From Escherichia phage Pu-Krd-SF1: a stretch of 64,000 nt of DNA. How positions within the stretch are numbered: the first letter of the stretch is position 1; every line of letters begins with the position of its first letter. Below the pieces are notes generated by a model. That model was not told where the DNA came from. It searched no databases and saw only the letters and a program-made list of their open reading frames with translations. The stretch is from sequence record PQ249395; one strand, given 5' to 3'. The position numbers were made by a program, and so were the translations under genes. Shown here one piece after another: positions 46,385-47,681 of this stretch.

Positions 46385-47413
46385 ATGTCATCAATACCTT
46401 GGATTGATAATGAGTTTGCATACCGTGCATTAGCTCATTTACCTAAATTCACACAAGTAAATAATAGTTCAACTTTTAAATTGCGGTTTAGATGTCCTGT
46501 TTGTGGAGATTCAAAAACCGACCAAAATAAAGCCCGTGGATGGTATTATGGTGATAATAATGAAGGAAATATTCATTGTTATAACTGTAACTATCATGCA
46601 CCAATCGGAATATATTTAAAGGAGTTTGAACCCGATTTATATCGTGAGTATATCTTTGAAATAAGAAAAGAAAAAGGTAAAAGTCGTCCAGTAGAAAAAC
46701 CTAAAGAACTTCCTAAACAACCTGAGAAGAAAATAATTAAATCTCTTCCATCATGTATTAGATTAGATAAACTGGCGGAAGACCATCCAATTATAAAATA
46801 CGTAAAAGCTCGTTGTATTCCAAAGGACAAATGGAAATATCTTTGGTTTACAACCGAATGGCCTAAATTAGTTAATAGCATAGCACCGGGAACATATAAA
46901 AAGGAAATACCTGAGCCTCGTCTTGTTATTCCAATTTATAATGCTAATGGAAAAGCTGAGTCTTTTCAAGGACGTGCATTAAAGAAAGATGCTCCTCAAA
47001 AATATATCACCATCAAAGCTTATCCTGAGGCAACAAAAATCTATGGTGTTGAACGAGTTAAAGATGGTGATGTATATGTTCTAGAAGGACCTATAGATTC
47101 ACTTTTTATTGAAAATGGTATAGCTATTACAGGTGGTCAATTAGACCTAGAAATTGTTCCATTTAAAGATAGACGTGTGTGGGTTTTAGATAATGAACCT
47201 CGTCATCCTGACACTATTAAACGAATGACTAAATTAGTTGATGCAGGAGAAAGGGTTATGTTTTGGGACAAATCTCCATGGAAATCAAAAGATGTTAATG
47301 ATATGATTAGAAAGGAAGGTGCAACCCCTGAACAAATTATGGAATATATGAAAAATAATATTGCTCAAGGGTTGATGGCTAAAATGCGTCTATCTAAATA
47401 TGCTAAGATTTAA
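46385..47413 (+). CDS. 61: DNA primase gp61
   Basis: 342 aa; zinc ribbon CPVCGDS...CYNC; Toprim region; matches T4 gp61 length. Confidence 0.92.
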   Translation: MSSIPWIDNEFAYRALAHLPKFTQVNNSSTFKLRFRCPVCGDSKTDQNKARGWYYGDNNEGNIHCYNCNYHAPIGIYLKEFEPDLYREYIFEIRKEKGKSRPVEKPKELPKQPEKKIIKSLPSCIRLDKLAEDHPIIKYVKARCIPKDKWKYLWFTTEWPKLVNSIAPGTYKKEIPEPRLVIPIYNANGKAESFQGRALKKDAPQKYITIKAYPEATKIYGVERVKDGDVYVLEGPIDSLFIENGIAITGGQLDLEIVPFKDRRVWVLDNEPRHPDTIKRMTKLVDAGERVMFWDKSPWKSKDVNDMIRKEGATPEQIMEYMKNNIAQGLMAKMRLSKYAKI

Positions 47414-47610
47414 ATTAACCCAACTAAAGCAAATGCTAAATCTACGAATGTATCAAGAGTAATTACTGGAATACTAACGCCATGAGCAAGAGCAACTGGC
47501 GATAAAACAAAATTCCAAAGTAAAATTCCTATCATAGCAGAAATAGTAAAAGCTATACGTTTTTTATTACCTTTTATGGCATTAACAAGTGCCATTAATT
47601 TTTGTACCAT
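47410..47610 (-). CDS. Hypothetical small membrane protein (only minus-strand gene in window)
   Basis: 66 aa; perfect AGGAGG RBS 4 nt upstream of the ATG on the minus strand; hydrophobic; converges tail-to-tail with gene 61. Confidence 0.55.
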   Translation of the reverse strand: MVQKLMALVNAIKGNKKRIAFTISAMIGILLWNFVLSPVALAHGVSIPVITLDTFVDLAFALVGLI

Positions 47611-47681
47611 ATATCCTCCTTATTGCTTTATATATTTATTGTATAATTAATCTACTAACCCATGAATTGAAAGGAAAAATA

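Follow-up and report, generated by a model that had tools for sequence, protein, structure and literature searches.

A conserved small gene and an optional dam slot between genes 61 and 56 of a Tequatrovirus

Organization of the interval between genes 61 and 56

The 64-kb stretch of DNA analysed here (the window) is a segment of a T4-like phage of the genus Tequatrovirus and runs collinear, in reversed orientation, with the first 64 kb of Escherichia phage Pu-Krd-SF5 (PQ759885). Identity to the best-matching records was 99.2-99.7%, none of them exact; for PQ759885 it was 99.67% over 7.9 kb and 99.2% over 24 kb. The interval of interest is bounded on one side by gene 61 (46385-47413, plus strand), identified from the open reading frame list, encoding a DNA primase of 342 aa that shows 98.5% amino acid identity to T4 gp61 and is annotated as DNA primase in PQ759885. 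On the other side lies gene 56 (47682-48200, plus strand), encoding a dCTPase/dUTPase of 172 aa with 76% amino acid identity to T4 gp56 and 98% to gp56 of Shigella phage vb_GEC_SH_GT. The two genes are separated by exactly 268 bp (47414-47681), the spacing given in an earlier sequence-only reading of this DNA.

This interval holds a single ORF of 66 aa on the minus strand (47410-47610), which profile match and conservation place in the RB69ORF029w / phrog_2024 family and which encodes a predicted bitopic inner-membrane protein. The small ORF and gene 61 are convergent, and their stop codons share 4 nt. A Shine-Dalgarno sequence, AGGAGG (47615-47620, minus strand), is set off by a 4-nt ATAT spacer from the ATG at 47610-47608, so that the start context on the ORF strand reads AAGGAGG-ATAT-ATG; the sequence thus bears out the earlier description of a hydrophobic 66-aa minus-strand ORF with a perfect AGGAGG 4 nt from its start codon. 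The further claim that this is the only convincing minus-strand gene of the window was supported by a survey of ORFs of at least 40 aa in the gaps between plus-strand genes across all 64 kb, in which no other ORF was preceded by a Shine-Dalgarno sequence.

Several putative regulatory elements are packed around the small ORF. Downstream of gene 61, on the plus strand, a terminator-like hairpin (ATGGCA..TGCCAT, 47576-47595) is followed by a T-run (whole element 47576-47605); a terminator is annotated at the equivalent place in phage fPS-2. The hairpin covers codons 2-12 of the small ORF in antisense and was found in Tequatrovirus only. Upstream of the small ORF, at 47640-47633 on its own strand, sequence comparison identified a late-promoter-like box, AATAAATA, which corresponds to TATAAATA with A at -13; its 3' end is 22 nt ahead of the ATG and its inferred start site is at ~47627. 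On the opposite strand, a MotA-type middle promoter for gene 56 can be read from the sequence (47623-47647, plus strand), consisting of the MotA box TTGCTTTA at 47623-47630, an 11-nt spacer and the -10 element TATAAT at 47642-47647, and the late-promoter-like box sits in the spacer of this promoter. A homologous middle promoter is present upstream of gene 56 in T4 and vb_GEC_SH_GT, a predicted middle promoter is annotated in fPS-2, and the strong middle promoter Pm:16038 was predicted at the equivalent position in RB69 (Nolan et al.).

Absence of dam and the variable slot upstream of gene 56

The T4 reference genome (NC_000866) has the order gene 61 (17935-18963), dam (16846-17625), gene 56 (16270-16785), and the T4 map given in the sequence-only reading, with dam between 56 and 61, was therefore correct. 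No Dam homologue was detected in the window by tblastn with T4 Dam (best E 0.67, outside the 61-56 interval), and the motif [DNS]PP[YFW] was absent from every window ORF of at least 120 aa. The 61-56 interval itself contains neither a Dam homologue nor a DPPY motif. As positive controls, the dam genes of T4 and vb_GEC_SH_GT were recovered by tblastn at E 1e-173 or better.

It is extremely improbable that dam has moved elsewhere in the genome, or that an unrelated adenine methyltransferase takes its place. Only 64 kb of the source genome is visible in the window, and even the nearest records differ slightly from it (99.2-99.7% identity), which leaves some room for relocation, but the 168.8-kb genome of the closest complete relative, PQ759885, has no annotated methyltransferase anywhere, gave no significant tblastn match to Dam in its remaining ~105 kb (64001-168847), and has no DPPY-type motif in a plausible ORF. 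One SPPY and one NPPW in this remaining portion were rejected as signs of a methyltransferase, as they belong to a plus-strand ORF that lacks annotation and overlaps annotated minus-strand genes, and to an annotated endonuclease. The Dam-like DPPY methyltransferase that the sequence-only reading had proposed looking for elsewhere was thus found neither in the window nor in PQ759885. On this sequence evidence dam is absent and not relocated, a judgement that beyond the window is made from the closest complete genome.

The absence of dam is unremarkable, because T4-type dam DNA was found in 184 phage records compared with ~500 Tequatrovirus records that carry the small ORF (at least 80% amino acid identity). 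The dam-less state is the commoner one in the genus and no oddity, and a Dam-like gene has been described as varying in occurrence among Tequatroviruses (PMC13390438).

The earlier description of the locus as having a small membrane ORF instead of dam holds for the missing dam gene but not for the ORF as its replacement. Comparison of the interval with T4 revealed an ORF of identical length already next to dam (NC_000866 17738-17938, plus strand), in the 309 bp that separate 61 from dam, which contradicts the word "instead". Its product has 91% amino acid identity to that of the window, with six substitutions, all of them conservative. None of the T4 records NC_000866, AF158101 and the older K03113 annotates this ORF, and the exact T4 protein appears in a large protein collection nameless and from raw assemblies only. 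The same arrangement, the small ORF followed by dam, was found in vb_GEC_SH_GT, a phage nearly isogenic with the window at this locus (gp61 99.7%, gp56 98% and the downstream endonuclease 100% identical). The two genes therefore coexist in T4, in vb_GEC_SH_GT (L003) and in L004, and the small ORF is better described as a fixed neighbour of the primase gene in T-even-type phages, with dam as an optional insert alongside it.

Alignment of the window with vb_GEC_SH_GT placed the empty site of the dam cassette at 47621-47622. Homology on the left extends to 47621, just upstream of the Shine-Dalgarno sequence of the small ORF, and on the right it resumes at the gene 56 promoter; ~880 bp, comprising the late-box region, the dam promoter region and dam, are unique to the dam-containing partner. 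The distance between the ATG of the small ORF and that of gene 56 is accordingly ~71-72 nt in the window compared with 951-953 nt in dam-containing genomes. The T4 61-dam-56 region shares with the window the flanking genes, the small ORF and the type of middle promoter in front of gene 56, and differs in having the ~880-bp dam cassette between the ribosome-binding site of the ORF and the gene 56 promoter, with a late-like box, GATAAATA, that comes from the cassette side.

Other elements occupy the same slot in other phages. In fPS-2 it holds a homing endonuclease (+651 bp), in Enterobacter phage Q7622 and Citrobacter phage Ursula it holds small extra ORFs, and in one IMG/VR contig dam is accompanied by a further segment, giving ~1500 nt between the two ATGs compared with ~950 in genomes with dam alone. 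In the dam-less Tequatroviruses, SP18 (Gaprivervirus) and RB69 (Mosigvirus), the layout is compact: the divergent ATGs are separated by only 71-88 nt. Because it recurs in these three groups, the compact dam-less layout looks ancestral, and the simplest inference from the comparison is that dam of T4 represents an insertion rather than that its absence elsewhere represents a loss.

Conservation, expression signals and predicted product of the small gene

The product of the small ORF matched the phrog_2024 profile over its full length (hmmscan E 2e-30, residues 2-66 against profile positions 1-65 of 65). Analysis by tblastn placed the ORF in ~700 phage records, comprising ~500 of Tequatrovirus type and ~200 from other Tevenvirinae at 50-55% identity, and weaker copies (27-39% identity) were present in Q7622 and Ursula. 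In all records inspected the ORF adjoins the 3' end of the primase gene, and in T4, vb_GEC_SH_GT, fPS-2, SP18, EAWsc9, Q7622, Ursula and RB69 it is convergent with gene 61 and lies between 61 and 56; T2 has the small gene as well. The window's copy is identical to that of several deposited phages, an annotated example being XPN51818.1 of Pu-Krd-SF5. The RB69 copy was annotated in 2003 as RB69ORF029w, and hundreds of T4-like genomes have a family member annotated as a hypothetical protein. Between RB69ORF029w / phrog_2024 and the window's ORF we found agreement in family, position (convergent with the primase gene, divergent from gene 56), length and the single predicted transmembrane segment, with no material difference. 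A profile search against 1.84 billion representative proteins yielded no more than seven sequences, all from the RB69ORF029w family, and judged from these sequence searches the family appears to be confined to T4-like phages, nearly all with enterobacterial hosts.

Comparison of homologues showed that selection acts on the protein. Within Tequatrovirus, dN/dS was ~0.1-0.2 (Nei-Gojobori); the T4 and fPS-2 ORFs, for example, differ by 11 synonymous and 4 nonsynonymous changes on 47 and 151 sites, respectively. Between genera pS was saturated and pN ~0.34, with ~50% amino acid identity kept. Invariant or near-invariant positions comprise AIKGN followed by a basic cluster, LWNF in the hydrophobic stretch, and then a proline, AHG and a second proline. 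Upstream of all homologues AGGAGG, GGAGG or AGGAG is kept.

These data effectively refute the proposal that the ORF arose by chance and owes its conservation to noncoding elements of the 61-56 region, for instance promoters, the terminator of gene 61 or the flanks of oriA, which we consider to have next to no probability. The antisense position of the terminator-like hairpin within codons 2-12 and the omission of the ORF by the annotators of the T4 reference would fit such a proposal, but dN/dS is far below 1, amino acid identity persists despite saturated synonymous sites, and length, start, Shine-Dalgarno sequence and synteny are all preserved across at least five genera. We also rejected the narrower suggestion that AIKGN merely reflects the antisense terminator hairpin: because the hairpin is confined to Tequatrovirus, it does not explain protein conservation, and both AIKGN and LWNF are kept beyond that genus. 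On the basis of these sequence comparisons, the 66-codon ORF is a genuine protein-coding gene under purifying selection.

Analysis of the sequence upstream of the small gene suggested possible late transcription. T4 late promoters consist of the 8-bp box TATAAATA at -13 to -6, perfect at 32 of 50 listed sites and with A at -13 at nine of the 50, which makes A(-13) the commonest natural variant (PMC2988020), and T(-13) is poorly conserved across other T4-like phages (PMC1524935). The Tequatrovirus box upstream of the small gene is never the perfect TATAAATA, being AATAAATA in the window and GATAAATA in T4 and other dam-containing phages. Equivalent nATAAATA boxes precede the ATG of the homologues (box 5' end 24-30 nt and 3' end 17-22 nt away) in otherwise unrelated flanks, reading CATAAATA in SP18-type phages, AATAAATA in RB69-type phages and, in Q7622, a perfect TATAAATA; upstream of the small ORF of Citrobacter phage Ursula there is no nATAAATA box. 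The dam-less and dam-containing versions of the locus diverge directly upstream of the Shine-Dalgarno sequence, yet each has a box at equal distance.

The genomic background of the motif was also considered. In the window ATAAATA is three-fold depleted (15 copies compared with 42 +/- 6.5 expected), and on the minus strand this copy alone precedes a Shine-Dalgarno sequence and an ORF; as a positive control, perfect plus-strand boxes precede soc and two other small ORFs. The late-promoter HMM of Nolan et al. called no site upstream of RB69ORF029w. Promoters of the sigma-70 type were no commoner on the ORF strand than in shuffled sequence, and T4 early and middle transcripts all run opposite to the ORF strand (PMC2988020). 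From these sequence features we infer that the small gene is probably expressed late, in the direction opposite to its early neighbours. A search of the 1.5 kb downstream on the ORF strand detected no terminator-like site, so any late transcript would be expected to read into gene 61 in antisense orientation. The literature on RB69ORF029w, T4 Ribo-seq and small-ORF studies and T4 start-site maps yielded nothing usable on these points.

A parallel in the window is soc (49061-49297), in T4 a late gene among early genes, which is likewise short and has a TATAAATA-type box ~20-30 nt upstream of its Shine-Dalgarno sequence and ATG. The two differ in that soc is preceded by two perfect boxes and is co-oriented with the early genes around it, whereas the small ORF has a box with one mismatch and opposes its early neighbours.

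The AlphaFold2 model built on the family alignment has a mean pLDDT of 85 and helices at residues 2-14, 16-42 and 52-65, and Nolan et al. reported one TMHMM helix, residues 21-41, in RB69ORF029w (PMC1524935 supplement). The N-terminal flank contains five basic residues and no acidic ones, and the C-terminal flank contains two acidic residues and no basic ones. Under the positive-inside rule the basic N-flank indicates a cytoplasmic N-terminus, and the product is predicted to be a small N-in/C-out inner-membrane protein with one span, whose short, hydrophobic, acidic C-terminal helix would lie outside or at the interface. No relative of the 66-aa protein was found in Pfam, NCBIfam, PADLOC or PDB sequences, and a BFVD fold search returned family members only. 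Weak matches to a transmembrane segment of NqrE (E 0.045), COX7B (E 0.028) and REase_II (E 0.049) were rejected as noise from hydrophobic composition.

Possible roles of the small gene and evolution of the locus

Taken together, the data are probably best explained by a Tequatrovirus that lacks the optional dam cassette and in which the small ORF is a genuine member of the RB69ORF029w / phrog_2024 gene family, with a late membrane protein as its predicted product. The source phage would be of the Pu-Krd-SF3/4/5 type, lacking the ~880-bp dam cassette, and the variable slot would be bounded by the start of the small gene and the middle promoter of gene 56. Late in infection the small gene would be transcribed from its nATAAATA (gp55-type) promoter ~17 nt upstream of the strong ribosome-binding site, with the transcript probably continuing antisense into gene 61. 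In the inner membrane, the product would keep its basic N-terminus cytoplasmic, span the bilayer once through a transmembrane helix (~19-42, including LWNF and a proline) and place the short C-terminal helix, hydrophobic and acidic, on the periplasmic side. Our best guess, weakly held, is a late accessory function in the envelope or in the timing of lysis.

A more specific role in lysis, in which the small protein is a holin or pinholin-like, accumulating late in the inner membrane and either forming lesions or modulating the T holin, appears unlikely. Small phage holins and pinholins (e.g. class II, 65-95 aa) resemble the product in size, in their membrane helix or helices and in probable late expression; the conserved mid-membrane Asn of LWNF could drive oligomerization, and a few family members carry the labels "Holin" or "holin family protein" in UniRef and in the EAWsc9 record. 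These labels are without support, as the window's protein and four distant homologues matched no holin family of Pfam or NCBIfam at E up to 10. The charge pattern is moreover the reverse of that of typical holins, with a basic cluster at the N-terminus and no charged C-terminal tail, the last 24 residues being hydrophobic with two acidic residues. The small gene is also not part of a lysis cassette, its neighbours being the primase and dCTPase genes, with t, e, rI and the spanins located elsewhere, and these phages already encode the T holin.

Whether the locus acts mainly through RNA was also considered. A late antisense RNA could silence the primase gene and the read-through 61-56 mRNA, and in dam-less phages an occupied late promoter could block the gene 56 middle promoter, leaving the peptide a secondary product. 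Overlapping stop codons, convergent genes and the lack of an ORF-strand terminator for 1.5 kb into gene 61 are consistent with such a role, as are the position of the late box within the MotA promoter spacer and the finding that T4 late transcripts are of either polarity, with both strands transcribed at different times (PMC2988020). We nevertheless regard a primarily RNA-level role as quite improbable, given the strong purifying selection on the amino acid sequence, with synonymous sites saturated across genera, and the perfect Shine-Dalgarno sequence. Neither is the required geometry conserved: the ORF of SP18 and that of EAWsc9 are each separated from gene 61 by ~110 nt containing a hairpin, and dam-containing phages have ~900 bp between the late box and the gene 56 promoter. 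Type I toxin-antitoxin systems such as hok/sok offer an analogy only, in that they likewise combine a small hydrophobic membrane peptide with an mRNA fully complementary to transcripts of the other strand. Unlike hok/sok, the small ORF has no dedicated antisense sRNA promoter, the complementary RNA being the 61-56 message, and there is no sequence relation.

The gene 56 middle promoter of T4 has been proposed as the source of the oriA primer transcript (rep_origin note, NC_000866), and this suggests a bolder and rather doubtful extension of the membrane-protein explanation. Judged from the sequence arrangement, the small gene might be a late membrane gene of all T-even-type coliphages, missed in T4 for decades, whose late promoter is interlocked with the gene 56 promoter in the ancestral dam-less layout. 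Promoter occupancy and antisense transcription could then act as a temporal switch, shutting down gene 56, oriA and the primase gene as the phage produces a new factor for the envelope or for lysis.

In sum, the finding is ordinary and largely known: T4-like phages are known to carry dam optionally, and near-identical genomes already have the small ORF annotated as encoding a hypothetical protein, so that the import for biology at large is little. What remains curious is that the T4 reference records omit a conserved, apparently late, predicted membrane-protein gene (17738-17938, plus strand), which by its promoter sequence appears to be transcribed late, counter to the direction of the long stretch of early genes in which it lies. 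The comparison also favours insertion of dam into a compact divergent promoter region over its loss from there.

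The small ORF and its junction with gene 61

The conserved 66-aa ORF carried on the minus strand at 47410-47610, between gene 61 (primase) and gene 56 (dCTPase), has a counterpart in T4 at 17738-17938 (+) (positions 4739-4939 of our T4 locus, NC_000866) that is unannotated in three T4 reference records, NC_000866, AF158101 and K03113. The RB69 homologue was annotated in 2003 as RB69ORF029w. About 165 nt 3′ of gene 61, the plus strand contains a terminator-like hairpin (ATGGCATTAACAAGTGCCAT and TAATTTTTGT; 47576-47605), which lies wholly within the 5′ coding region of the oppositely oriented small ORF. 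This hairpin is limited to the Tequatrovirus copies of the region, and a terminator is annotated at the equivalent position in phage fPS-2. In Gaprivervirus (SP18, 2190-2300, and EAWsc9), ~110 nt containing a GC-rich hairpin (GGGGT..ACCCC) separate the small ORF from gene 61, with no overlap between the two; the convergent overlap found in Tequatrovirus is thus not a conserved feature.

Divergence at gene 56

Identity to T4 is only 76% for gp56, compared with 98.5% for the neighboring gp61. Gene 56 (47682-48200, +) is overlapped and followed by a gene encoding a 278-aa protein annotated as a homing or HNH endonuclease (48190-49026, +), which showed no match to SegF of the T4 locus. Together, the gp56 divergence and this endonuclease fit a mosaic at gene 56 driven by homing endonucleases.

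Late-promoter-like motifs

Perfect TATAAATA boxes on the plus strand at 283-290 and 5907-5914, in the early region, each lie 25-28 nt 5′ of a small plus-strand ORF (61 aa and 70 aa, respectively) accompanied by SD-like sequences, and two more (48990-48997 and 49022-49029, +) lie 5′ of soc; these are candidates for late or dual-timing expression. On the minus strand, four nATAAATA motifs (GATAAATA, AATAAATA, CATAAATA and a second GATAAATA) cluster within ~1 kb (40491-41509); one of them falls where neighboring plus-strand ORFs leave a 300-nt gap (41479-41779). No SD or ORF was found downstream of these four motifs, which could be antisense late promoters. Over both strands of the window, the ATAAATA core is depleted approximately three-fold, with 15 occurrences observed versus 42 ± 6.5 expected from dinucleotide shuffles, a deficit compatible with stray late promoters being selected against in this early-gene region.
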